DNA from: Ktedonobacterales bacterium
GTDB taxonomy: Bacteria; Chloroflexota; Ktedonobacteria; Ktedonobacterales; JADMIN01
Direction of reading: 5' to 3'
Length of the DNA stretch: 32,000 bases
Assembly: GCA_030167145.1 (NCBI GenBank)
Contig: CP126532.1
Span: forward strand, 1,890,001-1,922,000
Under the pieces are notes generated by a model. It saw only the letters and a program-made list of their open reading frames with translations, was not told the DNA's origin and did no database searches. Position numbers and translations under genes: made by a program. Shown here piece by piece: positions 9,593-25,600 of the stretch. Within the stretch, counting starts at the first letter, position 1. Each line of letters opens with the position of its first letter.

Positions 9593-12208
9593 TTAGAATA
9601 GAATGTCCAGATCAATTTCGTCGAGACGTTGTAACTCGCGTCCGGTGGTGGCATCGAGCAGGTGGATGGAGACGCGCTGTGGCGGCAGGTGGTCGCGCTC
9701 GATATGCAGGATGGCGGTGTCGGGCGCTATGGTGAGCGGGTCATCATCCTGAAAGCGCGGTTGTATCTCACCAGTGGCTTCACTATAGCCGTAGTCTGCG
9801 GCAACCAGCCGGGAGATGATGTCGCTCCCCGCGCGAATCTCGACCCGCACGGGCGGGAGCGCGGTGTCGAATAAGCTGACGCGCTGCCCGGCGATCTGGA
9901 CGGAGCAGACACGGGAGGTGATTTTCTGCGAGCCAAGGGTGAGTCGCCATGCAATCTCGCGCCCCTCGCTGCTCGCGAGTGCTGCCGCGCGCGCCGTTGG
10001 GGTGATCACGACGACGGGAATCGCCATTTCTTGGGGGGATAGCCCGCCGTGGAAATAGGCGCGCGCGCCTCCGGGTAGTTTGAAGGCGCCAAAGCCCCAG
10101 GGTGTGGCAAGCTCCAGATCGGTGTCGTCCAGGTCGAAGGCGGCCAGCGGCGCGCGCAGATAGGCTTCGCTGGCAGCGCCACCACGCCCGATCCAGACAC
10201 GACGGTGCAGGTCGCAGGTGTGGCCGCCGGGTGGCTCAATTTTCATGTCGCTGCCGAGTTCATCACTGAAGAGAAAGCCGTGGTCGGCGGTGACGATGAT
10301 CTGTTTGCAGTGCAGCTCACTCAGTCGGCGGACGCCGCGCACCAGATTGGCGAGCAGTGCGTCCATGACGGTGTGCGCGAGGCTGATATTGTCCAACTCG
10401 CAAATGGCGTCAATTTCTTGTGAGGTAACGAGGATCAGGTCAGCGTCTTCGATGTTTTTCTTTACGGCATTTTGGGTTGTGAGCAGAGCATCAAGCGTGG
10501 TTGCAAATACGCGTGTCGGGCGGTGGGCGGTGGATGGGACCTGTTCTTTGAGCCATTTGATGCGGCTGTCGCGGTCGCGCAGGACGGTGTCACGCAGGTG
10601 CAGGGCAAGATTGCCATTGGGGGCGGGCACAACCTTCACCCCTTCTTCGGCGCCAGGGAGGAGCGCGGCCATACCAATGGGCGTGATGGTGGGTACGGTA
10701 CCTGCGGCAACGGCGAGGCGCGCGTCGTACCAGTCACCCAGGCTCTGGACGAAGATGCGCGCCATCTCATAGCGCAGGGCATCTACCAGGATGTATGCGG
10801 TTTTGCCAGCGCGCAGCGCTTCGGTGACATGGCGTGTGTAGATCTCGGTCTGGCGCTGGATGCCCGGAAGTTGGAAGCCTGCGTCCACCAGCGCATGGGT
10901 ATAGCGCACCGCAAGGGTATCGCCGACGCGCATGTACCGCTGGCGGGCGTGGGTGAGGAGCTGTTCGAGGGTGGGGTGGCGCGCGATGGACTCAAAGCGA
11001 CGGCTCTGTTGCTCTAGCTCGCGCTGGAGGGTATCTAGCTCGCACCAGGGGCGCTCGCCGTCGGTGTACGCATGCAGGATAGCGGCCGCCGAGAGGGTAG
11101 CGTGCTGGAGCGCGGCTTCGATCTCTGCCGCGCACAGCAGGAGGTTGCCCGCCGTGGCGCTGAGGGTCCAGCGGTCGTAGGCGTCAGGCAGGCGCTGCGC
11201 CCAATAGTCGCGCTTGCGCTGCTGGATGAGGTCGAGCAGTGTGGTGGATGGCGCGTCGCGTAGCGTGGTCTCCAGGGCGGTTTGGAGCGCGGTTTCGATG
11301 GCGGCGAAGGTTTCGCAGTCGCGTAGCTGCGCAAGGTCGAAGGGAATGCTGGACAGGCCAAGTTCGCGCTCGACGCGGTTGGCGTAGTCGGCATAGCTGT
11401 CGGCGAGGTCGCGCGTTTGGCGCCACCGCCGGACGAGCCGGAGGCACGCCTCACGCGGAGCCAGCTCCGTGGCAATGTTGACGGTGGCAAGCTGTGGAGG
11501 AACCGGCGGGTGAAGGCTGGCGAGAAGTTCAGTACACAGGAGGTGGCGCGCGAGACGCAGGCGCAACGTGGGGAGCGGCTCATCTGGCGGTAGCGGAATG
11601 CCGTAGGTTTCGCCAAGCAGCGCCGTGAGGTCGGGTTGAGCGTGTTTGGCGGCGATCTCGGTGTCGAATGTGTCGCCGGAGAGCAACTTGAGCGCCACTT
11701 CGTCGGGTATACCCGTGCCGAAGATGACGGCGATGACGCCGTGCGCTTCGGGGCTGCTGACGTGATCGCCGAGGCGATCCAGGTCGGCGAGGGAAAGCTG
11801 CCCTTCGTTGGCCTGCTTTTCGATGCGCTGAGCGTGTTCTACGCCGAGTACGTCTTTCAGCGCGGCCTTGGCGATGACTGAGAGGCGGGTGTTGCGCTGC
11901 CAGGGCTGCTGGCCGGGCTTGAGAACGACGCCAGCGGCGGTCAGTTCGATGAGCGCATCGTGGGTGTCGTCTTCAGCGAGGGGCACGTAGACGACGAGGC
12001 GCGGCGGCTGTTCGCCCTCCAGTAGCGGCGCGACATCGTGGCGGAGTTGAAAGAAGCTGCCTGCGTAGCGGGCGATGGTGGTATCGGGGAGGGTGAGCGC
12101 GGAGGCGAGGTCGCTATAGTGTCGTTCGGGGTCGAACCAGACGACGAGCCGCTTTTCGGTGACCTGTTTGGCGATCAGGTCGCGTAGATAGTCGCTGACG
12201 ATTCCCAT
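9593..12208 (-). CDS. pglZ: BREX alkaline-phosphatase-superfamily protein PglZ
   Basis: 871 aa with the PglZ core landmarks AYILVDALRYEMA and IIVTADHGF. It lies between pglX and brxL as in type-1 BREX. Confidence 0.9.
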   Translation of the reverse strand: MGIVSDYLRDLIAKQVTEKRLVVWFDPERHYSDLASALTLPDTTIARYAGSFFQLRHDVAPLLEGEQPPRLVVYVPLAEDDTHDALIELTAAGVVLKPGQQPWQRNTRLSVIAKAALKDVLGVEHAQRIEKQANEGQLSLADLDRLGDHVSSPEAHGVIAVIFGTGIPDEVALKLLSGDTFDTEIAAKHAQPDLTALLGETYGIPLPPDEPLPTLRLRLARHLLCTELLASLHPPVPPQLATVNIATELAPREACLRLVRRWRQTRDLADSYADYANRVERELGLSSIPFDLAQLRDCETFAAIETALQTALETTLRDAPSTTLLDLIQQRKRDYWAQRLPDAYDRWTLSATAGNLLLCAAEIEAALQHATLSAAAILHAYTDGERPWCELDTLQRELEQQSRRFESIARHPTLEQLLTHARQRYMRVGDTLAVRYTHALVDAGFQLPGIQRQTEIYTRHVTEALRAGKTAYILVDALRYEMARIFVQSLGDWYDARLAVAAGTVPTITPIGMAALLPGAEEGVKVVPAPNGNLALHLRDTVLRDRDSRIKWLKEQVPSTAHRPTRVFATTLDALLTTQNAVKKNIEDADLILVTSQEIDAICELDNISLAHTVMDALLANLVRGVRRLSELHCKQIIVTADHGFLFSDELGSDMKIEPPGGHTCDLHRRVWIGRGGAASEAYLRAPLAAFDLDDTDLELATPWGFGAFKLPGGARAYFHGGLSPQEMAIPVVVITPTARAAALASSEGREIAWRLTLGSQKITSRVCSVQIAGQRVSLFDTALPPVRVEIRAGSDIISRLVAADYGYSEATGEIQPRFQDDDPLTIAPDTAILHIERDHLPPQRVSIHLLDATTGRELQRLDEIDLDILF

Positions 12209-12324: not shown

Positions 12325-14436
12325 CTATTTGCCCTTCACGTAGCCCTTCGCGCGCAGTTGCTGGCCGATGGAGGACCAGTCGTATTTGCCGGTAAGCAGT
12401 TGTTGCCATGCTGCTTTGGCTTCTTTCCATGGTATCACTTCGCAGAAGGGGGCGATGTTGAGGAGCACGCCGTCGTTGAGGTCGGGGGTGAGGTAGTGGC
12501 GGGCGGCGCGGTCGAGGGCGTCGTGAAATTCGCGCAGGTCGGCGAGCAGGGTTTCTTGGCGGTCCAGGGCCTGGGCGGCGCGCCGGGCTTCGGGGCCGGT
12601 GGGTCCGGCGGCGGCTTTGGCGGCGTGTAGTTCGTCGAGGCGCTGTTCTTCGAGCCGGATTTTGGGCAGGAGGTGGAGGGTGAGGGCTTTGAAGATGAGG
12701 TCGGCGTCGAGGCGGTGGTAGTAGAGCCAGATGGCGTAGTGGCGTTTGGGGGATTGCAGCAGCCAGTAGATGGGGGCTTTGCGGCGGCTCTTGGAGTAGC
12801 GCGAGATGTGGAAGTCGAAGAAGAGGCGCGGGTTGCGGAGATATTCGCGCAGGTCGCGCACGCCGAGCAGCGCGCAGGCTTCGGCTTCGATGGCGCTGGC
12901 GCGGTCGCCCCAGAGGTGATCGAGGACGAGGCGGATGCGGCGCAGGAGGTCGTTGGGGGCGTCGGGGTCGTCTACGAGGATGCCGTCCCAGGCGATACCT
13001 AACCCCCCGGCCCCCTTCCCTGCGAGGGAAGGGGGAGTGGAGGGGGCGTCGAGCGTGGTGGGGTCGGGGAGGGTGATGGCGTTGGGACGGGTGCGGAGCC
13101 AGGCTTCGCTGGCGATGTGGTCGCGGGTGGCGGGGAGGCCGTCGTGGCCGACCAGCGCGCCGGGGGCGCAGACGGGCAGCGGGGCGAAGGGGTCGGCAAG
13201 GCGCGGGGCGAGCGTGGGGTCGTGGGCGATACGCACGTCCCAGCGGCCAAAGGCGCAGCCGAGGGCGTACATGATGAGGTTGGCAGCTTCGGTGCGGGCG
13301 CGCTGAAGTCCGTTGCCGGCATTGGCGTTGGATTGAGCATCGCGCTCTTCGTCGCGGTCGTCGCCAGCTTCGTCGCCAGTCGCCACGGCTCCTACTTCCG
13401 CTGGCGGCGAAGATGCCTCGATATGGGCGCGATCATCGGGGGAGAAGCCGTAGAGGGCGTAGCAGCGGTCATCTATCTCGCGCTGGATGGTGGCGAGGCG
13501 CTGGACGCGGGCGGCGTCTGCGTTGGCGAGGAGGCTGAGGGCGGCGGCGAGGGTGGGCTGGGCGCGCAGGCGGACGAGCGCGGGGACGGTGAAGGGGTGG
13601 GTGACTTCGTCGTCGCGGTCAGATTCCCGCTTGCAGTCGTGGGCCTCGCGGGCGAGGGTGGCGAGGGTGTGCGCGTCATCGGCGCTGAGGTCGGGGACGG
13701 GGGTACGCTGGACGACACCGACTTCGTAGGAGCCGAACGCCATTTGCATCGAGAGCAGCGCGCCGAAAGAGGCTGAGTTGACCATGGCGAGCAACGCGAG
13801 GAGATCTGTCGGCTCGTCATCTGAGACGAATAGGGCCGGGCCTTTGTCGGCGAAGATGCAGCCAGCGGGCATGACGCGCACGCTGAAGCCGCCTTGCGTG
13901 CGGCGGGGGTAGGTGAGGCCGGGGCGGAAGTAGTAGTCGAGGGCCTCGGGGCGCTCTATCTCGCGACCGGGGCGTCCATAGAAGTTGCGGTAGGTGTGGC
14001 GCGATTCGTCCCAATCAGCAAGTAGGTGCATATCGTAGTAGAAGGGCGAATAGCTACCGCCTTTCGCAAATGTTGCCCATCTGATGTTCCAGCTAACTGT
14101 AATGGGTAATACCTCCCACCACGTTCGAACACGTTGGAAATCATCGCCAGTGCTTGAGCCTCGGCGCGCCTCACGTCCATCCCCTTCGAAGGGCGGGAGT
14201 TCGGTGAAGAGTCGGCGTACATCCTCGCTGACCCAGTAGGCGAAGGGGGAGCCGGGGATCTGGCGGAAGGAGGCGGGGTCGAGGGTGAAGAGACCTAACC
14301 CCCCCAGCCCCCCTTCCCTACGTGGGAAGGGGGGAGTGGTGGCGGCGCGGTGGGCGGCGGTGGCGGCGCGTAGGGCGGCGGGTTTGTCGTCGGCGGCGAG
14401 GAGGCGGATGAAGGTGGTGGTGTGGGGCATGGTCAT
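12325..14436 (-). CDS. pglX: PglX C-terminal half (post-methyltransferase / putative specificity region) as a separate ORF
   Basis: ATG 14436 with AGGA 7 nt upstream. IPGSPFAYW, TGDDFQRVRTWWEV, KAPIYWLLQSPKRHYAIWLYYHRL and YDWSS are colinear with the region after the MTase domain of the intact paralogue (IPGSPWVYQ, SGNSRFLRFWWEV, KRPIYWLLQSPKRGYGVYLF, YDWSR). No internal stops over 703 codons. Confidence 0.8.
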   Translation of the reverse strand: MTMPHTTTFIRLLAADDKPAALRAATAAHRAATTPPFPRREGGLGGLGLFTLDPASFRQIPGSPFAYWVSEDVRRLFTELPPFEGDGREARRGSSTGDDFQRVRTWWEVLPITVSWNIRWATFAKGGSYSPFYYDMHLLADWDESRHTYRNFYGRPGREIERPEALDYYFRPGLTYPRRTQGGFSVRVMPAGCIFADKGPALFVSDDEPTDLLALLAMVNSASFGALLSMQMAFGSYEVGVVQRTPVPDLSADDAHTLATLAREAHDCKRESDRDDEVTHPFTVPALVRLRAQPTLAAALSLLANADAARVQRLATIQREIDDRCYALYGFSPDDRAHIEASSPPAEVGAVATGDEAGDDRDEERDAQSNANAGNGLQRARTEAANLIMYALGCAFGRWDVRIAHDPTLAPRLADPFAPLPVCAPGALVGHDGLPATRDHIASEAWLRTRPNAITLPDPTTLDAPSTPPSLAGKGAGGLGIAWDGILVDDPDAPNDLLRRIRLVLDHLWGDRASAIEAEACALLGVRDLREYLRNPRLFFDFHISRYSKSRRKAPIYWLLQSPKRHYAIWLYYHRLDADLIFKALTLHLLPKIRLEEQRLDELHAAKAAAGPTGPEARRAAQALDRQETLLADLREFHDALDRAARHYLTPDLNDGVLLNIAPFCEVIPWKEAKAAWQQLLTGKYDWSSIGQQLRAKGYVKGK
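12997..13037. repeat. GC-hairpin repeat element, single copy, in frame in the pglX C-half
   Basis: ACCTAACCCCCCGG + CCCCCTTCCC-TGCGA-GGGAAGGGGG, translated as TPPSLAGKGAGGLG. Confidence 0.85.
14293..14336. repeat. GC-hairpin repeat element, single copy, in frame near the N-terminus of the pglX C-half
   Basis: ACCTAACCCCCCCAG + CCCCCCTTCCC-TACGT-GGGAAGGGGGG, translated as PPFPRREGGLGGLG. This is the long tract class (C7, C6/G6). Confidence 0.85.
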
Positions 14437-14458
14437 GGTGGTGTCCTGGTGTTAGAAT
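14430..14458 (+). promoter_or_regulatory. candidate antisense promoter TGGTCA-N17-TAGAAT
   Basis: -35-like TGGTCA at 14430-14435, a 17-nt spacer, then -10 TAGAAT at 14453-14458. It overlaps the start codon and SD of the pglX C-half on the opposite strand. Confidence 0.3.
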
Positions 14459-14502
14459 GAGCGCAATCCAGTGATCTAGAGGGGGAAGGTTGGAGCCTTC
14501 GG

Positions 14503-14531
14503 CGGCCCTGTATAGGGCCGTTTTTGTTTAT
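14503..14531 (+). terminator. intrinsic-terminator-like hairpin oriented on the plus strand
   Basis: CGGCCC-TGTATA-GGGCCG followed by TTTTTGTTTAT. It is preceded by a second small hairpin, GAAGG-TTGGAG-CCTTC (14485-14500). The T-tract is on the plus strand only, antisense to the operon. Confidence 0.45.
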
Positions 14532-14547
14532 GCGAGTTGTGACTGAT

Positions 14548-14970
14548 CTAGGGAATGTACCAGCCTCTACGCGAGCGGCGGCCTTTGCCATATTGCGCTG
14601 GGATGCCGATGCCTAGCTCGTCTTCGGTGCGGTGCGTGCGGTGGGTGCGGGTAATGTTGGTGTCGCGGTATTCGGTCTCCCAGTCGTGGTGTTTGTGGCG
14701 CGGTCGGTCAGGCTTTTTGCGCGTGCGCTTCGCCGGTGGTCGTGGCTGGGCGGGACGGGTGAACCAGTCGGTGATGCCTCGCGCGGGCTTGGTTTCGAGT
14801 CCGGCGGGCGTGGGCAGCCCAGGGCCGGTCACGTAGTAGAAGCAGTGTGTGCCTTTCGCTGGCTGCTGCCGGAGCTTGTCCGCGTGGGTGGTGGCTTCGG
14901 CGAGCGTCTTGAAGCTGGCGGCTAGCTTATGCTGGTCCCCGATGCGGCGGTAGACCGAGTATTTGCTCAT
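14548..14970 (-). CDS. hypothetical 140-aa protein with a basic R/K/H/P-rich tail, inside the pglX split
   Basis: ORF 14548..14979. ATG 14970 has GGAGAGG 9 nt upstream. The sequence is MSKYSVYRRIGDQHKLAASFKTLAEATTHADKLRQ... followed by PAKRTRKKPDRPRHKHH...GKGRRSRRGWYIP. I recognised no family. Confidence 0.45.
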   Translation of the reverse strand: MSKYSVYRRIGDQHKLAASFKTLAEATTHADKLRQQPAKGTHCFYYVTGPGLPTPAGLETKPARGITDWFTRPAQPRPPAKRTRKKPDRPRHKHHDWETEYRDTNITRTHRTHRTEDELGIGIPAQYGKGRRSRRGWYIP

Positions 14971-15048
14971 GGTACCCATCCTCTCCGCGAGTTCAAGGGC
15001 GAACGTCTGTCGCGATCATGCCAACAGTATGAGTATGGCGACGATAGT

Positions 15049-17409
15049 TCATGGGTTTTTCTCCAGAACGTAGGCGGCGGTTTCGACCATGGCGGTATCG
15101 AGGACGCCGTAGCCGAGGTCGGCGAGGGCGATGGGGCGGGCTTCGGTGAGCAGGATGTCTTCGCGCCACTTCTGGAACGAGGTGAGGAAGAAGCCGGTGC
15201 GCGAGGTAATGGCGCCGAGGCGTCCGCTGGGTTCGAGCAGGGCGAGGCCGCGTTCGACGAAGGCGGCGTAAAGATCATTTTTGGTGCGGGGATAGGTTTT
15301 CTCGATGTAGGGCTTGGCGGGGGCGCTGGGTTCGCCGAACGGGGGATTCATCAGTACGACGCTGTAGCACTTCTCCAGCAGTTCGATGAGCGCGAAGCCA
15401 CGGGCGGCGTCCTCGGCGAAGAGGTGGCGAGTGTAGTCGTCGTCGCTGGTGGTGGCGTCTTCGGCAAAGCGGCGCAAGGCGGCGAGGACGCGCGGCTCGG
15501 CCTCGGTTTCGTAGAAGCGCGCGTCGGAGACACCTTCGTAGTTGAGCGTCTGCTGTTGTGGTGGCTGCCCCTGCGCGAAGAGGGTAAGCTGGACGTTGCC
15601 ACCGCCGGTTCTGATCCACTCGCGTTTGGCGTTGGCGATCTCCTGGCGCAGGGCGACCTCGACCTGGAGCAGCGAGCCAGCCTCACCGGCGAGGCGCATC
15701 TCACCCCATATATCGCGGACAAAGGGGTCGAGCGCGGGCGGATCGAGGGTCTTGGTGAAGGCGTCGAGCAGGTCACGCTCGCCGGGCATTGGCTCGGCAT
15801 AGACGAGATTGGCGCGGCGGATGGGCGGGCGCTGGTCGCGCGGGAGGCTGAGCGCGGCGTATTCGCGCTGGGCGCGCAGCCAGAGGGCGAGCGCGGCGAT
15901 CTGGACGGCGCGGAGGTCAATATCTACGCCGTGCAGGTTGTGGCGTAAGATCAGGGCGGGAACGGCGGCTTGATACGCGGGGAAGTCGCTGGCGAACTCG
16001 CTCTGGAGCGCGGGGCCGAGGTCATCATCTGCCCAGGCTTCGTGATAGATGCGCACGAGCAGGTCGAAGCAGTAGAGCAGGAAGTGGCCGCTGCCGCAGG
16101 CGGGATCAAGGATACGTAGTTCGCGGGGGTCGCGCTTGGCGCGATGGGGGATGATTTCGACTTCGCGATTCCACGCCTCGCAGATGGCGCGATGGAGTGC
16201 CCGCCAGTAGTCCAGGTCTTTGCCCTCTGGCGTCTCGCCGAAGTGATGCCAGCGGCGCTGCTCAAAGAAGAGACAGAGGCGTAGCTCTTCGAAGCTGCCG
16301 TTGATATTGCCCGTCTCGACGTATTCTTGCTGCTTGTCGTTCGCAATGGAAGCGACCATATCGAAATCGCGCGCTTCCGCAGATGTATCGTGCGCCAGGT
16401 GTGTCTGGGCGTAGGCATAGCCGTCTACCGTGAGCGCATAGCGCATTATGGCGTCAACAGAGGTTGCGGCGGGATTGGGGCGGGTCCACAGCTCTCCACC
16501 ACCCTCGCCCGGCATCACCCACGCGTCCTGTTCGGCATTGAACATGAGCGGCTCGTGCTGACCACGGCGCAGCCAGATGGGGTGTGGGGTGATGAGCATC
16601 GTTTCACAGAGGGTGGCGAGGCTGGTGTGGCCGTGGGTCATCTCCCACCAGAGGCGCCCAAGCGTGTTATCTGCCAGGAATTCGACGACGTAGCGCGGGG
16701 TGTAGAACTGATTGCGGAAGGCTAACTCGTAGCTGTTGCGCGGGGCCTGGCTGGCTTTGCGCGCCTCGTCGCGTAGCTCTTTGGGGGTGAAGTACTGGTA
16801 AATCCAGCCGATGGTCTCGTCGGCGTCCCAGACGCTGGCTAGCTCGGCATCGTTGAGGAGGGCGAGCACGTCTTCGAGCACGCGCTGTGGCGGGAAGAGC
16901 CGGTTGGCGGGGTCGTGCGGCGAGAAGAGGGCGGGCAGCTCGCTGGCCAGGGTCTGCCCAGTCCATTCGAGGAAGTGGCGATAGGCGAGATCCTGGCGGC
17001 CAGCGGACCAGAGGGTTTCTTCGCCGGGATTGTCGGCGAGATAGAACTTGAAGCCGTTGCTGTTGAGGCTACGGGAGACGGTCTCGCGGATGAGCTTGCG
17101 GCGTTCGAGCAGCTTGTAGGCGCAGAGGCGATTGAGATGCGTGAAGGCGACTTCGCGGATAAGCTGAGCGACGGCATCGTGCGCGGAGAAGCGGCGGGCG
17201 CCGAGGTGGGCGAGATACCGCACGACCTGCGCGCGATAGGCGAGGTCGGCGGGGGAGAGGTGGGCCATGCGCGCGGCTGGCTCGACTGCGCCGTGGCGGT
17301 GGATGCCAAACTGGCCTTCGAGTAGCTCGGCGACGGTGTCTTCGAGCAGCTTGCGGCACTGTGTGACGGCGAGGCGCAGGGTGTTGCGGATAGATTTATC
17401 GAGTGTCAT
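15049..17409 (-). CDS. pglX: PglX N-terminal half (N6-adenine methyltransferase module) as a separate ORF
   Basis: ETIGWIYQYF, FYTPRYVV, motif I ILDPACGSGHF and motif IV VVLMNPPFG are present. It ends ...TAAYVLEKNP-TGA at 15049-15051. Its ATG overlaps the stop of the upstream gene (TGATG). Confidence 0.85.
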   Translation of the reverse strand: MTLDKSIRNTLRLAVTQCRKLLEDTVAELLEGQFGIHRHGAVEPAARMAHLSPADLAYRAQVVRYLAHLGARRFSAHDAVAQLIREVAFTHLNRLCAYKLLERRKLIRETVSRSLNSNGFKFYLADNPGEETLWSAGRQDLAYRHFLEWTGQTLASELPALFSPHDPANRLFPPQRVLEDVLALLNDAELASVWDADETIGWIYQYFTPKELRDEARKASQAPRNSYELAFRNQFYTPRYVVEFLADNTLGRLWWEMTHGHTSLATLCETMLITPHPIWLRRGQHEPLMFNAEQDAWVMPGEGGGELWTRPNPAATSVDAIMRYALTVDGYAYAQTHLAHDTSAEARDFDMVASIANDKQQEYVETGNINGSFEELRLCLFFEQRRWHHFGETPEGKDLDYWRALHRAICEAWNREVEIIPHRAKRDPRELRILDPACGSGHFLLYCFDLLVRIYHEAWADDDLGPALQSEFASDFPAYQAAVPALILRHNLHGVDIDLRAVQIAALALWLRAQREYAALSLPRDQRPPIRRANLVYAEPMPGERDLLDAFTKTLDPPALDPFVRDIWGEMRLAGEAGSLLQVEVALRQEIANAKREWIRTGGGNVQLTLFAQGQPPQQQTLNYEGVSDARFYETEAEPRVLAALRRFAEDATTSDDDYTRHLFAEDAARGFALIELLEKCYSVVLMNPPFGEPSAPAKPYIEKTYPRTKNDLYAAFVERGLALLEPSGRLGAITSRTGFFLTSFQKWREDILLTEARPIALADLGYGVLDTAMVETAAYVLEKNP

Positions 17410-18221
17410 CAGGAAACACCCCTCAGCGTGACGACGAGGTCGGCGTGTTGGGCGTGTTCGGCCACGAGTTCATCGAGGGCGAGGCAGATGTGCTTGATGG
17501 TATCCACGGATTGCGTGGCCCAGGAATAGCTGATCTCCTGCACCTTGCCGTCGGGGCTGGCTTGTGCGCGGTCGGCGCGGTGGACGATGTCGTTGCGGCG
17601 GCGAGTGGTTTCGTCAATGACGCTCATCAGCTCTTTCTTGTCGCGCTGGAGCTTGGCGGCGATCTGATCCCAGGGCTTTTCGAGGCTGAGCAGCGCGCCG
17701 ACAACATGCACACCCTTGCGCGAACTGAGGTATTTGAAGGAGGTCTGCGCGAGGATGCGGTTGGCGATGAAGAGCGGGGCGTCGGGATCGCCGAGCAGCC
17801 GGAGGGTCTCGGAGAGCGAGAAGGTGAGGTCTTTGAAATACTCTTCGATGCTGGGATCGGGTGGCAGGAAGTCGCGCCCGCGCGCGGCGATCACCTGGGG
17901 GAGATTGGCGCGGAGCACGGATGGCAAGTAGGCGTCGAGTGCGGTGCAAGCGGCGACGACCGATTGGCGCAGCAGGTTGGCGAGCGACTGGCGTCGCAGG
18001 GCGCTCTTGGGGATCTGGGCGCTCTCGCGGACGAGGCCGACGAAGATCTCGTTGTAGATCAGCATCAGGTCTTCGTCGTGCTGGGCATGGACGATGCCGG
18101 CCAGCGCGGTGACCAGCTCGCCATCGGTCTGGATGGTCTGGCAGTCGAGCAGGCGGTAGACGCGCAGCAGCAGTTCGGCGGGGCGCATGGTGTCTTCGAA
18201 TACCTGGCGTGGACTCGTCAC
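17409..18221 (-). CDS. HEPN-like (Rx4H) protein embedded between brxC and pglX
   Basis: GTG start at 18221 preceded by AAGGAGAAGGAGGG with a 6-nt spacer. The stop overlaps the pglX ATG by 1 nt. It is a helical 270-aa protein with ETTRRRNDIVHRAD near the C-terminus (RNDIVH = R-N-x3-H, 17580-17597). The family assignment is inferred only. Confidence 0.55.
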   Translation of the reverse strand: MTSPRQVFEDTMRPAELLLRVYRLLDCQTIQTDGELVTALAGIVHAQHDEDLMLIYNEIFVGLVRESAQIPKSALRRQSLANLLRQSVVAACTALDAYLPSVLRANLPQVIAARGRDFLPPDPSIEEYFKDLTFSLSETLRLLGDPDAPLFIANRILAQTSFKYLSSRKGVHVVGALLSLEKPWDQIAAKLQRDKKELMSVIDETTRRRNDIVHRADRAQASPDGKVQEISYSWATQSVDTIKHICLALDELVAEHAQHADLVVTLRGVS

Positions 18222-18244
18222 GTGTGGCCCTCCTTCTCCTTGTC

Positions 18245-21200
18245 CTATTCGACGATGATGCTGGCGCCCTGGGCGAGCAGCTTGAACAGTTCGTCGCGGA
18301 GCTTGTCGAGCGCGGCGTTCACGGCGGCTTCGGTGTCCAGGGAGTCGGGAAAGAATTCGGCGGCGCGCACGTGCGAGATGGCGCTCTGGCCGCGCTCCGC
18401 CGTATCGGGCGCAAGGGTCAGCTCCTGGATGCGCGCGAGCGCCTGGGATTTGAGGCCAGCGAGGGCGAGCAGGTCGGATTCGATTTGGCTGAGCGTCGCG
18501 TGGCAGTGCGGGCAGACGCTGGCCGTATCGTCGAGATGAAGACCTTCGATGCAGGCGCGCTGGGTCAGGGGATCGAGCAGCGCCGGACGGGAGGCTTCGG
18601 GCACATTGGGCCAGTTGGCGCTGCCCTTGATCGCGTCAATCGCGGCATCGAAGTGACTGTGCCGTTTCGCGTGCAGCCCCTCGTAGACATCGGCGTAGGC
18701 GGCGGCGAGCGCGCGGGTCATGTCGCGCAGGTGGGGCAAGCGCTCGTAGAGCGTGCTGTCACCGAGGATGTGCTGTATTTCCGCGGCTTTGTCGTCCAGC
18801 CCGTCGGTTGCGCCACGGGCTTGCAGGATGGGCCATTGCTGGTCGAGGACACGCCGGGCGTCGCGGACGGTGGCGACGATGTGCTGCTCGGTCAGCGCTT
18901 CGCGGATGCGCCGGGCCTGGGCGCGCAGCTCTTTGAGGGAGGTGCTTTCGCCGGCGAGGGTGCGCACGCAATCGTCTGAGGCGGCGTTCTGGATGGCGGT
19001 GAGGGACTGGTAGTAGTCGTCGAGCAGGTCCATGCCGGGGAGGTCGTTGGCGCGGACCTCGGCGCGGGCGGGCAGCAGGAGCGCAATCTCCGCGTTGGCC
19101 AGCTTCTTCAGGCTTTCGGCGATGGCGCCTTCTTCGACATCCACCTCATCGCCGGTGAGGGTCTCGAAGCCACGCACGGCGGCGGTGAGGGTGCGCAAAT
19201 CAATAGATTCGCGCGGGGTGAACGAGGCGCTGCGGAAGGCGGGGTTGGAGGTGAGCGGAGTGCGGCAGAGTGGGTCTTGCGCGTTGCGGTAGCGCCGGCC
19301 CTGATAGGTCACCTCGACGGCGCCCGCGCGCAGCAGCAGCGCCAGCACCAGCTTGATGACGTCGAGTTCCCAGCCGTAGGAAAGGCCGGTGAAGTGGGCC
19401 TCCAGCTCTTTGCCGGTGACGCGGTTGCCGTAGGAGTGCTCTTTCTTGAGATAGTCGAGCACCTCTTTGGCGATCTCGGCGTGGACATGGGGGACGAACT
19501 TCGCGCCCTCTTTGGTGACGAGGTTGAGGCCGTGCTCGCCACCGTAGAATACTTGCGGGAGCGCGTTGAGGTTGGCGGCTTTGAGCACTTCGTCGGCTTC
19601 GTTGCCAGTGAGGCCGGGGCGAGCGCCCATCTCGAGCTTGGGATAGAGGTCGGGGACGACGGCGTTGAAGAGATTTCGGAAGATTTCGGCGAGCGATCTG
19701 CCGAGGTCGGAGGCGTCTTTGGAGATGCCGCGAAAGATGCTCTGGCCGCGTGCGAGCGCCGCCTCCAGCTTCTCGCGCAGGCGACTCTGGTAGCGCGCTT
19801 GCTCGCGTTTCTCGGCATCGAGGAGGGGGGTAAGCTCGGCGGCACGCTCGCCCTGCGCGCCCGCCTGGCTATATTTGGCGATCATCTGGCTGGAGGCATG
19901 CACCTGATTGATCAAGGTGTCTAACTCGGCATCCAGGGCGAAGATCCAGTAGATGTCGTTGGTGTGGTCGCCCATGCGGCTCTCGCTGCGGGCGTCTTCC
20001 AACCGGCTGGCAAGCTCGGTCGGCGCGTCGGCGACGCGGAGGGTGAGCGGAATATCGCCCGTCGCAAGGCGCACGTCGTCCATGGTCAGTCCGACCTTGA
20101 AGGTGCGCTTGAGCGGGTGCTGGTAGGTGAGCAGTTTTTGGTCGGAGAAGATTTTTAGCAGGGACTCGCGTTGAATCTCGTTGCGCTCGCGGGGTTTGGG
20201 TTCGAGATACTGCTTGCGCTCGGTATCCCAGTTCTTCTCCTGGGCGGTGAGCAGTTTCCAGCCTTCTTCGGTATGGCGGACGAACTGCGCTTGCTCCAAC
20301 CTGCGGATCGCCGCTTGTACCTGCGGCAGCGGCGCGGACGCGCCCACCTGATCCACCAGCACGGCGGCGACGTTGGCGTCGGTGCGAGGCAGGTCGCGCA
20401 CGAATTCGAGCAGGCAGAGCGCCTTGGCGACGCGGGCGGCCCAGCCGGCATCGTCGCGGTCACTCTTGAAGCGTTCGGTGATGTCGCTGATGTCTTTCTG
20501 CTTCTCAGACGAGAGACTGCCCTCGACCAGCTCGTAGATCAGATCGAGGGTGACGAGCCGCCCGACGGGCTGCCGCGCGAGATCGGTGCGCGGCGCGGTG
20601 AGCATGGAGTGCGCTTGTTTGATGATGGTGCGGTTGCTGCCGCTGATGTGGCGCGGCGCGCCGGGTTGGGAGCGGATGCCAGTCATGATATCTATCGAGA
20701 GGTCAATGTAGTGCGGCAGGTAGGGGTAGAAGCGCACGAAGTCGTCTTCGCGCACCTCACTCTTGCGGCTGGTGCGCTCCAGATGGCAGGAGGTGTTGAG
20801 CTGGCCCTGCGCCTGGGCGAAGATCTGGCGCAGTTCGGGGACGGCGCTGGGCTTCTTATCGAGCACGCGCTTGGTGGCGACTTCGCTGATGTCGGCGGGG
20901 GTGAGGTCCACGCGATGGCGGAAGCGGTCCTGCACCATGGCGAGCTGCACGCGGCGCGAGTCGAGGGCGGAGACGACTTCTTCGAGTTTCTCCTGGCTGG
21001 TGACGATGATCCAGATGGGGGCGATGGCCTGGCGGGCGCGGATGCGGTTCTTGCTCTCCTGGCCGAAGTGTTCGACCACGGCGCGCAGATCGTTGAGCTT
21101 GTCGGCGCTCTGCGAGACATACTGGCCCACTTCGTCTACGATGAAGGTGAGCGCTTTGCCGGGGCGGCGGCGCGCCATTAGCTCGAAGGCGCGATCCACC

Positions 21201-21913
21201 AGCTTTTTCGTGTTGATGTCTGCGGTACGCCCAGCCAGTGACCGCGCCCAAGAGTCGGCGGCGGGGTAGGTGCGTGGGTCGAGTTCGTGCAGCGCGGCAC
21301 TGGCGCGATTCAGCTTCGTTGCGCCAGTGCGGACAACCTCCCAGGGTGGGCCGCCGTGCGCCTGAGCACAGGCGACGAATGCGTCGAGCTGGCCATCGCG
21401 CTCAAGCTCAATTTCTAGCTCGGCGATATCGAAGTCTTCGGCGTAACCCAGCGAGCGCAAGAGCTGGGCGTAGAGAAGCTCAGTGATGCGCTCGTTATTG
21501 GTACGTGCGGAACGCTCGACCATGACATCGAACATGATGACTTCGGTGGGGATGCGCGCGGTGATGAAGTCTACCAGTTGCGAGATGGCGGGGTCGTCAA
21601 GCTGCTGCTTAAAGAGGTCGGCGGCGCGGTGGCCGAGCACGGTGCGATTGGCGAGGACGTAGCCGAGGTTTTTGGCGAAGGAGGATTTGCCGGAGCCGAA
21701 GAAGCCAGAGATCCAGATGCCGACGCCTTCGGTGAGATCGGTGGGCGCGTCGGCCATGGCTTTGAGCAATCCGTGATAGTGTTCGCGGATGCGTTTGGTG
21801 GCGACGTATTCGGTGAGTTCACTGTAGACGGTCTTTTCGTCTTCCTGGGTCACCTTGATGATTTCTTCGATGTGCTGGTTCAGGTCGCGGCTGAGCAGGT
21901 CTTGTATGTGCAT
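18245..21913 (-). CDS. brxC: BREX P-loop ATPase BrxC
   Basis: 1222 aa. The N-terminal region is typical of BrxC (MHIQDLLSRDLNQHIEEIIKV...GIWISGFFGSGKSSFAKNLGYVL, Walker A). Confidence 0.9.
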   Translation of the reverse strand: MHIQDLLSRDLNQHIEEIIKVTQEDEKTVYSELTEYVATKRIREHYHGLLKAMADAPTDLTEGVGIWISGFFGSGKSSFAKNLGYVLANRTVLGHRAADLFKQQLDDPAISQLVDFITARIPTEVIMFDVMVERSARTNNERITELLYAQLLRSLGYAEDFDIAELEIELERDGQLDAFVACAQAHGGPPWEVVRTGATKLNRASAALHELDPRTYPAADSWARSLAGRTADINTKKLVDRAFELMARRRPGKALTFIVDEVGQYVSQSADKLNDLRAVVEHFGQESKNRIRARQAIAPIWIIVTSQEKLEEVVSALDSRRVQLAMVQDRFRHRVDLTPADISEVATKRVLDKKPSAVPELRQIFAQAQGQLNTSCHLERTSRKSEVREDDFVRFYPYLPHYIDLSIDIMTGIRSQPGAPRHISGSNRTIIKQAHSMLTAPRTDLARQPVGRLVTLDLIYELVEGSLSSEKQKDISDITERFKSDRDDAGWAARVAKALCLLEFVRDLPRTDANVAAVLVDQVGASAPLPQVQAAIRRLEQAQFVRHTEEGWKLLTAQEKNWDTERKQYLEPKPRERNEIQRESLLKIFSDQKLLTYQHPLKRTFKVGLTMDDVRLATGDIPLTLRVADAPTELASRLEDARSESRMGDHTNDIYWIFALDAELDTLINQVHASSQMIAKYSQAGAQGERAAELTPLLDAEKREQARYQSRLREKLEAALARGQSIFRGISKDASDLGRSLAEIFRNLFNAVVPDLYPKLEMGARPGLTGNEADEVLKAANLNALPQVFYGGEHGLNLVTKEGAKFVPHVHAEIAKEVLDYLKKEHSYGNRVTGKELEAHFTGLSYGWELDVIKLVLALLLRAGAVEVTYQGRRYRNAQDPLCRTPLTSNPAFRSASFTPRESIDLRTLTAAVRGFETLTGDEVDVEEGAIAESLKKLANAEIALLLPARAEVRANDLPGMDLLDDYYQSLTAIQNAASDDCVRTLAGESTSLKELRAQARRIREALTEQHIVATVRDARRVLDQQWPILQARGATDGLDDKAAEIQHILGDSTLYERLPHLRDMTRALAAAYADVYEGLHAKRHSHFDAAIDAIKGSANWPNVPEASRPALLDPLTQRACIEGLHLDDTASVCPHCHATLSQIESDLLALAGLKSQALARIQELTLAPDTAERGQSAISHVRAAEFFPDSLDTEAAVNAALDKLRDELFKLLAQGASIIVE

Positions 21914-22139
21914 ACCTATCCCCCTGGCCCCCTTCCCTACGAGGGAAGGGGGGAATGTACCTATCCCCCTGGCCCCCTTCCCTACGAGGGAAGGGGGAAG
22001 ACGGACCTATCCCCCTGGCCCCCTTCCCTACGAGGGAAGGGGGGAATGTACCTATCCCCCTGGCCCCCTTCCCTACGAGGGAAGGGGGAAGACGGACCTA
22101 TCCCCCTGGCCCCCTTCCCTACGAGGGAAGGGGGAAGTG
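21914..22139. repeat. tandem array of 5 GC-hairpin repeat units filling the DUF559-brxC spacer
   Basis: Units start at 21914, 21959, 22005, 22050 and 22096, so periods alternate 45/46 bp (a 91-bp higher-order unit). Each unit is ACCTATCCCCCTGG + CCCCCTTCCC-TACGA-GGGAAGGGGG. The spacers alternate between AATGT and AAGACGG. Confidence 0.95.
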
Positions 22140-22538
22140 TTAGTGTGCGGCGTCGGGCGCTGGTGGCGCTGATGTCCGACAGGCGGCGGCGATGCGTGCG
22201 AGAACGCTGGGCAGATCGCGCTGGATGTCGTGATTGGATATGCGCAGCACGCGCAATCCATGGCCGACGAGCACTTGATCTCTCTCTGTATCATACTCCA
22301 CCTGCTCGTTGTGAATGCTACCATCCACTTCGACGACAAGTGCGGCTGCGTGACAGTAGAAATCCACGATAAATCCGGCGATCACTTGCTGACGCCGGAA
22401 GTGAAGCCCTTGCAAGCGATTCGCGCGCAGCCAGTGCCAGAGCAGTTCTTCCTCCTCAGTCATCGCCGCCCGAAATGCCCTGGCTTGTTCCACCTTCACT
22501 GGCGCCACTCGCTGTCCACGGACGATCTTTCGTGCCAT
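22140..22538 (-). CDS. DUF559 (Vsr-like / PD-(D/E)xK fold) endonuclease-domain protein
   Basis: EEELLWHWLRANRLQGLHFRRQQVIAGFIVDFYCHAAALVVEVDGSIHN...DQVLVGHGLRVLRISNHDI matches the DUF559 pattern (LW..LR...FRRQ..ig.yivDF.c....lviElDG..H...D..Rd..L...G..vlRf). Confidence 0.85.
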   Translation of the reverse strand: MARKIVRGQRVAPVKVEQARAFRAAMTEEEELLWHWLRANRLQGLHFRRQQVIAGFIVDFYCHAAALVVEVDGSIHNEQVEYDTERDQVLVGHGLRVLRISNHDIQRDLPSVLARIAAACRTSAPPAPDAAH

Positions 22539-22554
22539 ATCGCTGTATTCCTCT

Positions 22555-22597
22555 CTTATACTGCCCTTATACCGCCCTTATACCGCCCTTATACTGG
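22555..22597. repeat. four direct repeats of CTTATAC(C/T)GCC with an exact 11-bp period, upstream of DUF559
   Basis: CTTATAC occurs at 22555, 22566, 22577 and 22588. On the coding strand each reads GTATAAG. The repeats lie 17-60 nt upstream of the DUF559 ATG (22538). Confidence 0.85.
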
Positions 22598-22620
22598 ATG
22601 GTCTTGACCTGTTTGGACTA

Positions 22621-22648: not shown

Positions 22649-25600
22649 TCACCTCTCCTCCCCCTTCCCTCCCAGGGAAGGGGGCTGGGGGGTTAGGTCC
22701 GTCTCCCCCTTCCCTCCCAGGGAAGGGGGCTGGGGGGTTAGGTCCGTCTCCCCCTTCCCTCCTAGGGAAGGGGGCTGGGGGGTTAGGTCCGTCTCCCCCT
22801 TCCCTCCTAGGGAAGGGGGCTGGGGGGTTAGGTTCTGCGCGATGGCGTAGCTCTGGTTCGCGCGGCAAGCGGCGAGGACGCGGTCGGGCCAGTAGCGCAT
22901 GGCGGTGCGGGACCAGTCGTAGTCGCCGCGCTCCAGCGCCTGCCAGCATTGCCGGGGTTCGGTGGACCAGGCGGGCATGAGGGTATGAAGCGGGGCGAGG
23001 TTGATGAGGATGCCGTCGTCTAGCTCTGGCGCCCAGCCGGTCGTCTCGCCGCGCGCGTTGGGCTGGGTGGTGACGGCGGCGAGGGCTTTGTCGAAGGCTT
23101 CGAGGTCGTTGAGGGTGGATTCGAGCGCTTCGAGGGCGCGTTCGGCGCGGCGGCGCTCGGCGCCCTGGGGCAGCGCGGGCAGGCGCTGGCGCTGCTCGGC
23201 GATGTCGCGCCGGACGGAGGCGATGCGGCCGCCCAGGTAACGGCTGCCGCGCAGCAGGTGCAGGGTGTCGCGGGTGACGCATTCGGCGAAGAGGTAGACG
23301 CCGTAGCCGCGCTTGGGCGATTGCAGCAACCAGTAGATGGGGCGCTTACGATAGCGTTTGTGGTGGTCTTTGAAGAAGTCTTTGGCGAGCCAGTCGTGCA
23401 GCGGGCGCCCGCCAGTGGCGGTGGCGAGCAGGCCCTCGACCTTATCGTCGCCGAGCAGGACTTCGAGCACGTGGGTGACGCGGGCGGCGAGGTCGTCGGG
23501 GTGGCCAGGATCGAGTACGGCGATGGGGGACCCCTCCCCCAGCCCCTCCCCCACAGGGAGAGGGGAGTTGAGAGTGAGGGGGGTAATGGCGAGGCTGGCG
23601 GCTGGGGGTGTGCCATCGGGCGCAGGGAGCGGTGCGACGCCGTTGCCAAGCGCGCCAAGGATGCCGGGGGAGAAGCGACCGAGGGCGATGCCGACGGCGT
23701 AGCTGACCCAGCGCGCGGCGAGGGATGACCTATCCCCCCCGGCCCCCCTTCCCTGGGAGGGAAGGGGGGAGAGAGAGGCATGCGCGCCGTTTGCGCAAGA
23801 TTCGCCATCTGCGCTATTGATGGCATCCGCGTCCGCGTCCGCTTCTTCGTATTTCTCCGCGTCACGATCATCGCCAGCCAGCGCCGCCGCCTCGTCTTCC
23901 TCCTCCCCCTCACGCGCCCCACCTGCTAGCGCCGCCGCCACCTCGTCTTCCTCCTCCCCCTTCCCTCCCAGGGAAGGGGGCTGGGGGGATAGGTCCGCTT
24001 CGATGGCGGCGCGGTCTGCGGGGCTGATGTCGTAGAGGCGGTAGACTTCTTCGTTTATTTCGCGCTCGATGGCGGCGAGCTCGGCGTGACGGGCGGCGAC
24101 GCGGGCCAGACCATCGGGCCAGGCGGGCGGGGCGACGAACTCGTAGGTGGTCTCGTCTTCGGCGCTGTCGGCGCGGGCGAGGGCTATCGCCCGCTCGACG
24201 AGGCCGCGCAGGGTGTCGCTGGACACGGTGGGGATGGGGAGACGCTTCAGATCGCCCAGGTAAAAGTGAAACGTTGGATTCAGCACCGCAAGTAAGTGAT
24301 TAGCAACTGACGAGTTCAATATGCCAAGCAGCTTATATAAAATGCTGCTCTGCTCAGAGAAAATACAGTTGCCTGCATGATCAAAGAGAAAGCCAGCAGG
24401 CATGTAGCGTATGCTTAAACCTTTGGATGTGAGATCAGTGAAAGTCAGTCCTTGGTGGAAATAGAGTTGTCTGCTTGGAAGTTTGTTGCCTCTTTCGGAA
24501 AGAATGCGGAAGTGGGGCAAGTCGTAAGCAATTACAAATTCTTGGTTACCCCACCAGCGTCGGAACTCACCGCCCTTCATATGTGGAAACCACCGCTTCC
24601 CTGTGTACCAGGCTTCCTCGGCAGATGTGCAACCGAATCCAATACTAGAAATGCCTACCTCCCACCAGAATCGCAAGAAACGCGAATTTCCTGATGTTGC
24701 CAGCCCTTGTCGCGGATTAGCACTATTGACAAGTTTAGGCAAATTAGCGAAGAGTGATCGTAGAGACGGGGTTATTTGGTAGACCCAGGGGGAGCCGGGG
24801 ATGGCATCGAAGTCGCGCTGGCGGTAGGCGTAGACGGCGGGGTCGGTTGCGCCAGCCTGGAAGGCGGCGACGGCACGCTCGAAGCCACGGCGCTTGGCTT
24901 CGGCGTCGGGTTCGCGGACGAGGCGGATATACCTGCCGGTGGCGTGGTCGCGGCGGGCGGCGTCGGGTTCGGCGCGGAGGACGAAGAGGGTAGTGTTGAC
25001 TATCTCGCCGTCGATCTCGGCAAAGGCGCGCGGGCCGACGTGGATCATCGTTTCGATGGCGGTCAGGTGGCGCAGCTTGTCGCGCAGCGCTTCGTAGCTG
25101 CTGATGAACATGAACGACTGCTGTGTAATCATCGCCAGCCGTCCGCCGGAGGCGAGCATCTGTGCGCAGCGGTCAATGAACGCGGCGTAGAGGTTGTCTT
25201 CGGATGCTGGAAATTCCACTTCCAGATATTTGCGCATGGTGGCTGACATGTTGTCGCTACCCATATAAGGCGGGTTGGCGGCGACGACATCGTAGCGGCG
25301 GAGCATCACGTCGAGCAGGCGCATGCCCTTGACGGCTTCGCCGGCGAAGTAGGCCTGGTCTATGCCTTCGCGGGCCTGCTGGCGGGCGAATTCGTCGAAG
25401 GCCTGGACGATCTGCGCTTCGAGGATGCCCCAGTATTCGTCGTCGTCGGCGTCTTCTTCGAAGAGCGTGCGCAGCTCGGGGAAGGGCAGGCGCCCCTGGC
25501 CTTCGAGGCGGAAACGCTGGCGTTCGGCCAGGATGATGGCGCGAATCTCGTCTTCGAGCCGCAGCAGCGAGCCAAGCTGGTTGGCGTCGCGCAGGCGCTG

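Follow-up and report, generated by a model that had tools for sequence, protein, structure and literature searches.

HEPN domains bearing the Rx4-6H motif are typically metal-independent RNases. In the PrrC and RloC anticodon nucleases, a latent HEPN RNase is silenced by a type I restriction-modification (R-M) complex and is set free once a phage has knocked out that complex. The way in which BREX blocks phages is still unexplained, BrxC being one of the components whose role is least understood. HEPN genes embedded in Pgl/BREX operons were proposed as suicide or back-up effectors in the text of Anantharaman et al. (2013; PMC3710099), where RloC-family HEPN genes are also noted in Pgl operons, and the same proposal for BREX-embedded HEPN genes is found in the main text of Rakesh and Krishnan (NAR 2026; PMC12839542). 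BrxC-like DUF499 ATPases often have an N-terminal HEPN domain, with 1370 taxa reported in PMC12839542; this HEPN-DUF499 fusion is also described in PMC3710099. In type-3 BREX, BxaP defends E. coli against T4, and its domain, DUF4145, is a predicted member of the HEPN superfamily (PMC10799925). HEPN add-ons in BREX are already known from the 2013 and 2026 works, and the gene described here is a further example, so the gain is incremental. The main text of PMC12839542 names no HEPN family and describes no fixed slot after brxC, no co-phylogeny and no subclade with pglZ downstream.

The window (the whole stretch of 32,000 nt analysed, from contig CP126532.1 of a Ktedonobacterales bacterium) contains brxA, brxB, brxC, pglX, pglZ and brxL in one operon, which corresponds to type 1 BREX, and these six genes are all located on the minus strand between 28483 and 7527 (Table 1). 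The operon also includes a second pglX, a DUF559 gene, a 143-aa ORF and the HEPN gene. The first pglX probably starts at the ATG at 27004, according to a start-codon scan. An apparent inverted fragment of this gene upstream of brxC, of the kind expected from a shufflon, was discarded: what looked like pglX there is a 45-nt palindromic repeat whose copies had been translated. Neither a nucleotidyltransferase domain nor an MNT antitoxin was detected in the operon genes scanned (Pfam, PADLOC, NCBIfam), and the neighbours of the HEPN gene are brxC and pglX, an arrangement different from that of a HEPN-MNT toxin-antitoxin pair.

Table 1. Features of the BREX operon and of the HEPN gene (positions in the window).
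Feature	Position	Strand	Basis
brxA	28483..27665	minus	Pfam BrxA
brxB	27690..27109	minus	49-67% identity to BrxB of related loci carrying PF08747
First, full-length pglX, between brxB and brxC	22649..27004	minus	NCBIfam NF033452, 801.7 bits, profile 3-1209
brxC, 1222 aa	18245..21913	minus	NCBIfam NF033441 BREX_BrxC, 712 bits; PADLOC PDLC02476, 779 bits
Shine-Dalgarno of the HEPN gene, AAGGAGAAGGAGGG	18241..18228	minus	Read from the sequence
Predicted RiboL-PSP-type HEPN gene (GTG start, 270 aa, TGA stop)	18221..17409	minus	Translation; Pfam PF18735
Codons of R209-N-D-I-V-H214 (Rx4H motif defining HEPN RNase active sites)	17597..17580	minus	Alignments
Second pglX, N-terminal half (helical and methyltransferase), 786 aa	17409..15049	minus	PADLOC PDLC02527, 1-659 of 1332; Pfam Eco57I
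Second pglX, C-terminal half (target recognition)	12325..14436	minus	PADLOC PDLC02527, 666-1264; NCBIfam BREX_1_MTaseX, 656-1208
pglZ	9593..12208	minus	Pfam PglZ; PADLOC PDLC02559
brxL	7527..9563	minus	Pfam BrxL_N, BrxL_ATPase, Lon_C

The 270-aa ORF is a genuine gene, as the first-pass annotation had claimed and as its translation and homologues bear out. At E <= 1e-3 there are 700 homologues, the best 120 of which share 63-80% identity with the window protein; the named homologues and the related loci come from several phyla, and synteny around the gene is conserved in more than 100 loci. Conservation among the homologues begins at residue 3 (SPRQxFEDxxRPAELLL), for which reason the GTG start is correct and the public gene call P0001, which begins at an ATG in codon 12 and gives 259 aa, is too short. 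The spacer between the Shine-Dalgarno sequence and the GTG measures 6 nt (CCACAC), and the predicted duplex with the anti-Shine-Dalgarno sequence (-13.1 kcal/mol) is the strongest among 11 operon genes. G+C-rich DNA yields many long spurious ORFs, and the 32-kb window, in DNA of 64% G+C, holds 90 ORFs of at least 100 aa; nevertheless, the number, identity and phyletic spread of the homologues, the conserved N-terminus and motif, the synteny and a strong ribosome-binding site of its own refute the view of this ORF as a chance frame or as a mis-annotated extension of an adjacent gene, to which virtually no probability is given.

Several details of the first-pass annotation hold on this point: the ribosome-binding site, which it placed among the strongest in the window, has the strongest predicted duplex of the 11 operon genes, and the gap between the brxC TAG (18247..18245) and the GTG is indeed 23 nt. 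It had also noted a TGATG overlap with pglX. The TGA of the HEPN gene and the ATG of the next ORF do share TGATG at 17409, with the qualification that this ORF is the N-terminal half of a second, split pglX.

Sequence profiles support the gene product as a divergent member of the RiboL-PSP-HEPN family and a predicted HEPN-type RNase. This family (PF18735), the first of the candidates put forward in the HEPN call made from the sequence, is the sole Pfam match of the window protein; the match (E 1.4e-5) spans profile positions 22-189 of 191 and reaches 25.5 bits, below the Pfam gathering cut-off of 28.4 bits. All 33 aligned homologues match PF18735 as well (best E 3.4e-7), and many close homologues have it in precomputed Pfam matches. 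Homology to members above the cut-off was demonstrated by family profile search and by hhalign. The family profile finds more distant relatives with E values from about 1e-11 to about 1e-36 that pass the PF18735 cut-off with up to 51 bits; among them, P0184, P0261, P0270 and P0173 (E from about 1e-11 to 1e-34) score 40-51 bits; hhalign of the family alignment (A1) against PF18735 members above the cut-off (A5) gives a probability of 99.7% and E 3.7e-27 over 252 columns, lining up RRNxIxH. On the other hand, no PADLOC or NCBIfam model matches the HEPN protein, the hits up to E 10 being only weak ones to Csx1, Csm6 and PD-T4-2_B that are not counted as evidence, and a profile search of PDB sequences gave no match. 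Most of those weak matches fall on the motif region, both in the window protein and in its relatives.

The window protein contains ETTRRRNDIVHRAD, which includes R209-N-D-I-V-H214 and thus the conserved Rx4-6H that characterises the HEPN superfamily. The string RRRNDIVHR is unchanged in 33 of 33 homologues, and R208, R209, H214 and D217 are invariant in a 16-sequence alignment at 19-38% identity, as are R85 and W184 down to 19% identity. R-N-x3-H is kept across the family and its non-BREX relatives, with isolated substitutions at N only. Conservation of the R and H residues had been set beforehand as a check of the HEPN call, which passed it, R209 and H214 being invariant both in the 33 homologues and in the 16 divergent sequences. 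The all-helical character that had been noticed is reproduced by an AlphaFold2 model of the 270-aa protein, with a pLDDT of 80.6 for the whole protein and of 88.3 over residues 70-270. Foldseek returned only generic helical bundles, none below E 0.25, both when PDB and BFVD were searched with the full-length model and when PDB was searched with residues 70-270, and one HEPN toxin chain, 7ae8_D, came no higher than rank 32 (E 3.1). The HEPN call holds by profile (PF18735); Foldseek in PDB and BFVD gave it no HEPN match.

As for genomic position, the HEPN gene lies directly after brxC in one type-1 BREX lineage that extends over many bacterial phyla. Upstream DNA of 300 nt or more is available for 99 family members, and in 98 of them a brxC stop lies no more than 120 nt upstream, the gap being 1-5 nt in most loci, with a GGAG inside the final brxC codons; the sole exception still follows a pglX fragment. 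Other genes separate the HEPN gene from pglX in about one fifth of the loci, and in one subclade, which was covered by a metagenome scan with a four-sequence subclade alignment (A4), the gene order is pglX-brxC-HEPN-pglZ-brxL, which keeps the adjacency to brxC and loses that to pglX. The constant partner of the HEPN gene is therefore brxC and not pglX. The gene is found with brxC and pglX in other genomes, a check that had been proposed beforehand, and the argument that tight coupling means co-function stands in so far as the gene co-evolves with the BREX core and is no random passenger; however, it had been built on pglX, and the conserved coupling is that to brxC. For this reason the idea of a regulator of PglX is weakened and, given the variable adjacency (other genes, or pglZ in the subclade), was set aside. 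The same BREX loci hold other cargo slots, which are variable.

The HEPN gene is inherited together with the BREX core. Its pairwise distances correlate with those of BrxC and PglZ (Mantel r 0.89 in both cases) and with those of BrxA, BrxB and BrxL (r 0.74-0.82), always with p <= 0.003, and mean divergence is 0.38 for the HEPN protein and 0.415 for BrxC. These data bear on the view that the gene works on its own, as a one-gene abortive-infection or toxin system that is lodged in BREX operons and needs no BREX protein. Precedent can be found in BxaP, the DUF4145 protein of type-3 BREX that protects alone (PMC10799925); more distant PF18735 relatives exist outside BREX (L108 and L109), and the gene has been cleanly lost from some loci. 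Nevertheless, its position after brxC is fixed in those 98 loci despite the variable cargo slots, the Mantel correlation of 0.89 gives no sign of exchange between lineages, no family member scoring at least 140 bits was found away from BREX genes (the single exception being the one that follows the pglX fragment), and tblastn against PLSDB revealed no plasmid copy. Such autonomy is consequently considered improbable.

The presence of the gene is facultative. In a small, brxC-anchored sample of nine loci, it is intact in five, frameshifted in one and absent in three. The three BrxC proteins without it all nest among carriers, with 61-78% identity to their nearest carriers compared with a median of 53% among carriers, and their nearest HEPN-positive neighbours differ, which implies at least three losses. 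The HEPN-less loci retain all six BREX genes, with pglX in the vacated slot, and no difference was found in the C-terminal tail of BrxC between loci with and without the gene. An essential core subunit was thus set aside because of these independent losses. The first-pass statement that the gene lies outside the BREX-1 core set also proved right: no PADLOC or NCBIfam model exists for it and three of the nine relatives lack it. Since close loci without the gene look intact, it adds to BREX and is not needed for the core function.

The HEPN protein could also be a non-catalytic or regulatory BREX subunit and no toxic effector, in which a HEPN-like bundle binds nucleic acid or nucleotide. This is regarded as unlikely, and equally so the role that it would have, bridging BrxC to PglX or PglZ, or tuning the expression or processing of BREX mRNA. 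The protein evolves at the rate of BrxC and BrxB and mirrors their tree, translational coupling on both sides suits a stoichiometric assembly, no antitoxin partner is present among the neighbouring genes scanned, and non-catalytic HEPN domains such as MtlR are described in the text of PMC3710099. According to the same text, though, HEPN domains without catalysis are those without the R-N-x3-H motif, which here is invariant apart from the substitutions at N, also in non-BREX relatives; moreover, the gene-less loci, complete in their six BREX genes, indicate that a bridging subunit would be dispensable.

The most likely role of the HEPN gene is that of an optional RNA-cutting arm of BREX. More precisely, the protein is thought, with slightly more confidence than doubt, to be a BrxC-tethered latent RNase acting as accessory or back-up effector. 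We infer its RNase activity, its physical contact with BrxC, what triggers it and what it does to the cell. The protein is translated in step with BrxC; it would bind BrxC and be kept in an inactive state on it. Either the sensing of foreign DNA by BrxC or the disabling of BREX by a phage would then release or activate the RNase, which would cut RNA, providing BREX with an abortive or back-up arm. Two observations go against an effector: a constitutively expressed HEPN toxin would need restraint, and the scanned neighbours include no antitoxin; besides, the 63-80% identity (best 120 homologues) and the clock-like co-evolution with the core suit a structural subunit equally well. A stronger version, rated as quite doubtful, makes the HEPN protein the main executioner, a bound RNase which BrxC, on unmethylated foreign DNA, would switch on to cut RNA. 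If it were true, BREX of this lineage would stop phages through RNA cutting, offering a tractable natural system for the BREX block and a mechanistic tie between BREX and HEPN-DUF499 systems.

The gene, whose product is a predicted RNase, makes a clean genetic handle: it nearly always comes straight after brxC, is usually coupled to it in translation, co-evolves with it and can nonetheless be lost. Two carriers in culture open a way to experiments, Anaerolinea thermolimosa IMO-1 (locus L019, NZ_DF967965.1 924481-945287) and Planctomicrobium sp. SH527 (locus L029, NZ_CP195790.1 944832-965590). The gene suggests BrxC as the hub at which accessory effectors dock and are signalled to, a parallel to the related systems whose BrxC-like ATPases are fused to HEPN, and it allows a stably inherited module to be told apart from the truly variable cargo of the same loci.

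Compared with known systems, the closest family is RiboL-PSP-HEPN (PF18735; 'Ribo L-PSP-HEPN' in Anantharaman et al. 2013, PMC3710099), to which homology extends over about 250 residues (hhalign 99.7%), with R-N-x3-H, an LLR(Q) motif and the all-helical character in common. The members that gave it its name are fusions with endoRNase L-PSP or lie in operons with ParB, whereas the clade of the window protein is standalone, is nearly confined to the slot after brxC and contains an additional segment around residues 27-70. With the HEPN genes embedded in Pgl/BREX operons it shares being standalone inside the core operon, with BREX genes on both sides. The HEPN-DUF499 fusions (type-1 BREX-related, Hma; Ava_2192 type) likewise combine a HEPN domain and a BrxC-like ATPase of the STAND/ORC type within a defence system built on a methyltransferase, the HEPN being proposed as a last-resort RNase. 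However, in these fusions a HEPN of the Abi2/Swt1 group is covalently N-terminal to the ATPase, while that of the window is a separate gene past the 3' end of a true brxC, and none of the best 150 profile matches exceeds 374 aa. BxaP is also a small predicted-HEPN protein encoded among core BREX genes, and its phenotype resembles abortive infection, but it belongs to another HEPN family, occupies the slot between pglXI and brxHII, was shown to act alone, is rare, with 21 carriers in 7308 BREX-bearing MAGs, and is also present in type I R-M loci. Finally, PrrC and RloC, guarded by type I R-M, follow the same working model as the one proposed here; in both of them an ABC-type ATPase domain precedes the HEPN domain in one polypeptide, whereas the 270-aa window protein has no ATPase domain, its PF18735 match being the only one, and no sequence similarity to PrrC or RloC was detected.

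In the window, part of a Ktedonobacterales MAG, the 270-aa ORF placed between brxC and the second pglX of the BREX operon (from here on, the HEPN gene) is a real gene. A search of 5.8 billion proteins retrieved 700 homologues, the best 120 of which share 63-80% identity with the HEPN protein; the organism names, available for few homologues, are KSB1, Acidobacteria and Ktedonobacterales. The homologue alignment is conserved from residue 3 on (SPRQxFEDxxRPAELLL), so the GTG start proposed in the first-pass annotation is right and the public record of this protein, P0001 (259 aa), which begins at Met12 and drops 11 homologue-conserved residues (window 18189-18221, minus), is too short. The window sequence and a duplex calculation also confirmed the other features described in that annotation: the ORF, its ribosome-binding site, the 23-nt gap after brxC, the motif and the TGATG in which the HEPN stop codon TGA shares bases with the ATG of the next ORF. 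The Shine-Dalgarno/anti-Shine-Dalgarno duplex of the HEPN gene (-13.1 kcal/mol) is the strongest of 11 operon genes.

Table. Genes of the BREX operon, in gene order, and signals of the HEPN gene (window coordinates).
Feature	Position	Strand	Remarks
brxA	28483..27665	minus	
brxB	27690..27109	minus	
pglX1, full-length	about 27004..22649	minus	between brxB and DUF559 gene
DUF559/Vsr-like endonuclease gene	22538..22140	minus	132 aa; PF04480, E 1e-33; between pglX1 and brxC
brxC	21913..18245	minus	
brxC stop TAG	18247..18245	minus	23 nt ahead of HEPN start
Shine-Dalgarno AAGGAGAAGGAGGG	18241..18228	minus	followed by CCACAC, then GTG
HEPN gene	18221..17409	minus	GTG start, 270 aa, TGA stop
R209-N-D-I-V-H214 of motif ETTRRRNDIVHRAD	17597..17580	minus	present in translation
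pglX2, whole	17409..12325	minus	after HEPN gene
pglX2, N-terminal half	17409..15049	minus	786 aa
143-aa ORF	14979..14548	minus	no family match
pglX2, C-terminal half	14436..12325	minus	703 aa
pglZ	12208..9593	minus	
brxL	9563..7527	minus	

The sole Pfam match of the window protein is PF18735 (HEPN_RiboL-PSP; E 1.4e-5, profile positions 22-189 of 191), its 25.5 bits being slightly below the curated cut-off of 28.4 bits. The same model is matched individually by 33/33 aligned homologues (best E 3.4e-7). A search of 1.84 billion cluster representatives with the family profile yielded no more than 309 clusters (61 at <1e-30), which indicates a small and tight family; distant full-length matches of this profile exceed the PF18735 cut-off, up to 51 bits, and one distant relative also weakly matches the MAE_28990, Swt1 and Apea HEPN models. 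Comparison of the BREX clade with above-cut-off PF18735 members by hhalign gave 99.7% probability (E 3.7e-27, 252 columns), with the RRNxIxH motif aligned. Thanks to these homologue matches, the profile search and hhalign, assignment to the PF18735 HEPN family is firm at sequence level, which supports the HEPN call of the first-pass annotation. Conservation of the motif was also checked: R209 and H214, together with L83, L84, R85, W184, R208 and D217 (window numbering), are invariant in 16 sequences at 19-38% identity, N210 being kept in 14/16. A lack of R/H conservation among homologues, which the first-pass annotation had named as a refuting observation, was thus not seen.

The related loci compared with the window (L numbers) comprise 54 from GTDB species representatives, 57 metagenomic ones found with a distant-subclade query and several obtained by exact-protein look-up, and their genes were mapped by tblastn. 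Of the 99 family members for which 300 nt or more of upstream sequence is available, 98 have the end of brxC no more than 120 nt away, the sole exception being a HEPN gene preceded by a pglX fragment. In most loci 1-5 nt separate the brxC stop from the HEPN ATG, in the pattern CTGGAGTGAnnnATG, whose GGAG sits within the final brxC codons; this spacing is consistent with translational coupling. The downstream neighbour is less fixed: in loci with enough downstream DNA, pglX (52/75) or pglZ (6/75) starts within 150 nt, and neither does in 17/75, where gaps measure about 0.2-9 kb, one of them filled by a 424-aa AAA_22-like gene. In some loci (L002, 10851-12125; L123, 7503-8777) this P-loop gene separates the HEPN gene from pglX. 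In the subclade of the distant homologue P0184 (L062, L064-L067, L070) the genes are arranged pglX-brxC-HEPN-pglZ-brxL. It is thus brxC that is conserved as the partner, and not pglX, which the first-pass annotation had emphasised.

Carriers include Chloroflexota, Acidobacteriota, Planctomycetota, KSB1, Cyanobacteria, Proteobacteria, a Clostridia MAG and Binataceae; the gene was not found on PLSDB plasmids, and L108, L109 and other PF18735 proteins of greater distance lie outside BREX. The metagenomic locus L078 (11698-14034) has a second brxC after the downstream pglX (pglX-brxC-HEPN-pglX-brxC). A conserved 190-aa gene, without Pfam or PADLOC match and absent from the window, lies between pglX and pglZ in several BREX loci that carry the HEPN gene: L001 (15021-15593), L002 (16360-16932), L020, L029 and L036.

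Pairwise distances between HEPN proteins follow those of the BREX core, with Mantel r of 0.89 for BrxC (n=41) and PglZ (n=23), 0.82 for BrxB (n=31), 0.76 for BrxL (n=18) and 0.74 for BrxA (n=31), all at p <= 0.003. Mean divergence of the HEPN protein is 0.33-0.38 across comparisons (0.38 in the BrxC set), and that of BrxC, PglZ and BrxB is 0.415, 0.46 and 0.35, respectively. The gene has been passed on together with the operon instead of being shuffled, and this tracking, together with the fixed slot after brxC, supports the earlier argument for co-function. An autonomous Abi gene merely lodged in BREX is disfavoured by the same fixed slot and by the lack of exchange between lineages.

The two-pglX layout of the window also occurs in at least three fully mapped Chloroflexota loci (L019, L024, L055), and a PglX1-type match lies upstream of brxC in seven incomplete ones (L011, L012, L014, L016, L023, L026, L051). 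Variable cargo of these operons, such as the inserts of L051 and L011 and the DUF559 gene of the window, behaves unlike the co-inherited HEPN gene. In the window, pglX2 is cleanly split at about position 660 of the PADLOC profile PDLC02527, and the 143-aa ORF, with a homologue (72 bits) at the same site in the metagenome locus L091, occupies the split (14437-15048); in L051 the same site holds HicB, an AAA_21 ATPase and DUF4435, and in L011 it holds a 1222-aa WD40 protein. The DUF559 gene, flanked by 159-nt inverted repeats of tandem 45-nt units (21914-22072 and 22675-22833), resembles a small mobile cassette. A G+C-rich palindromic element (core CCCCTTCCCT-N4-GGGAAGGGG, unit about 45-48 nt) has 16 sites in window 13012-26130, with 0 expected by chance, and is confined to the BREX locus; tandem copies are spaced 45 or 48 nt apart, several copies lie within the reading frames of pglX1 and of the pglX2 C-terminal half, and four tandem ones code for roughly the last 60 residues of pglX1.

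Loci collected via the HEPN gene cannot show whether it is dispensable, so sampling was anchored on brxC. The IMG/VR locus L116, found with the BrxC C-terminus, has pglX 6 nt after brxC and no HEPN gene. In a further eight BrxC homologues (54-64% identity), picked at intervals along the match list, the gene is intact in five (L117, L118, L119, L121, L122), frameshifted in L123, beside the 424-aa AAA_22-like gene, and absent in two (L120, L124). BrxC identity among carriers has a median of 53% and a minimum of 38%; the three HEPN-less BrxC proteins have different nearest HEPN-positive neighbours (61-78% identity), which points to at least three independent losses. In these three loci pglX fills the post-brxC slot and the BrxC C-terminal tails are unchanged. 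The HEPN gene is thus typical of the clade yet facultative, and it is dispensable for retaining an intact-looking BREX operon. In the long-read MAG loci L056, L057 and L058 it is truncated or frameshifted, which could reflect assembly indels or true pseudogenes.

The name 'Ribo L-PSP-HEPN' goes back to the 2013 definition of the family, which was described there as occurring in fusions with endoRNase L-PSP or sharing operons with ParB, and as a distant relative of AbiD and AbiF (PMC3710099). The text of a 2026 survey counts standalone HEPN modules among the auxiliary or back-up effectors of BREX (PMC12839542). In the texts searched, that of the survey included, no description was found of this family in BREX, nor of its fixed post-brxC position, co-phylogeny or facultative loss.

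The observations show that the protein belongs to the HEPN family and has an intact Rx4H motif, and that its gene lies directly after brxC and shares the inheritance of the BREX core. A non-catalytic adaptor or regulator would fit the steady co-evolution with that core and the lack of an antitoxin gene among the neighbours scanned, but the catalytic motif is invariant and the gene has been lost cleanly, both of which speak against it. Most likely, the protein would be held on BrxC as a latent putative RNase; the sensing of invading DNA by BrxC, or a disabling of the complex, would trigger it, and its activation would provide an abortive or back-up arm. This BrxC-bound latent RNase leans on the precedents of HEPN-DUF499 fusions, HEPN genes in Pgl/BREX, BxaP and PrrC, the last being the classical case of a nuclease kept silent by an R-M partner. 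BrxC-like DUF499 ATPases frequently bear a fused N-terminal HEPN domain, and HEPN genes within Pgl/BREX operons have been interpreted as suicide or back-up effectors (PMC3710099; PMC12839542). BxaP, a DUF4145 protein inserted in type-3 BREX, confers abortive-like defence, and DUF4145 is a predicted HEPN-superfamily domain (PMC10799925).
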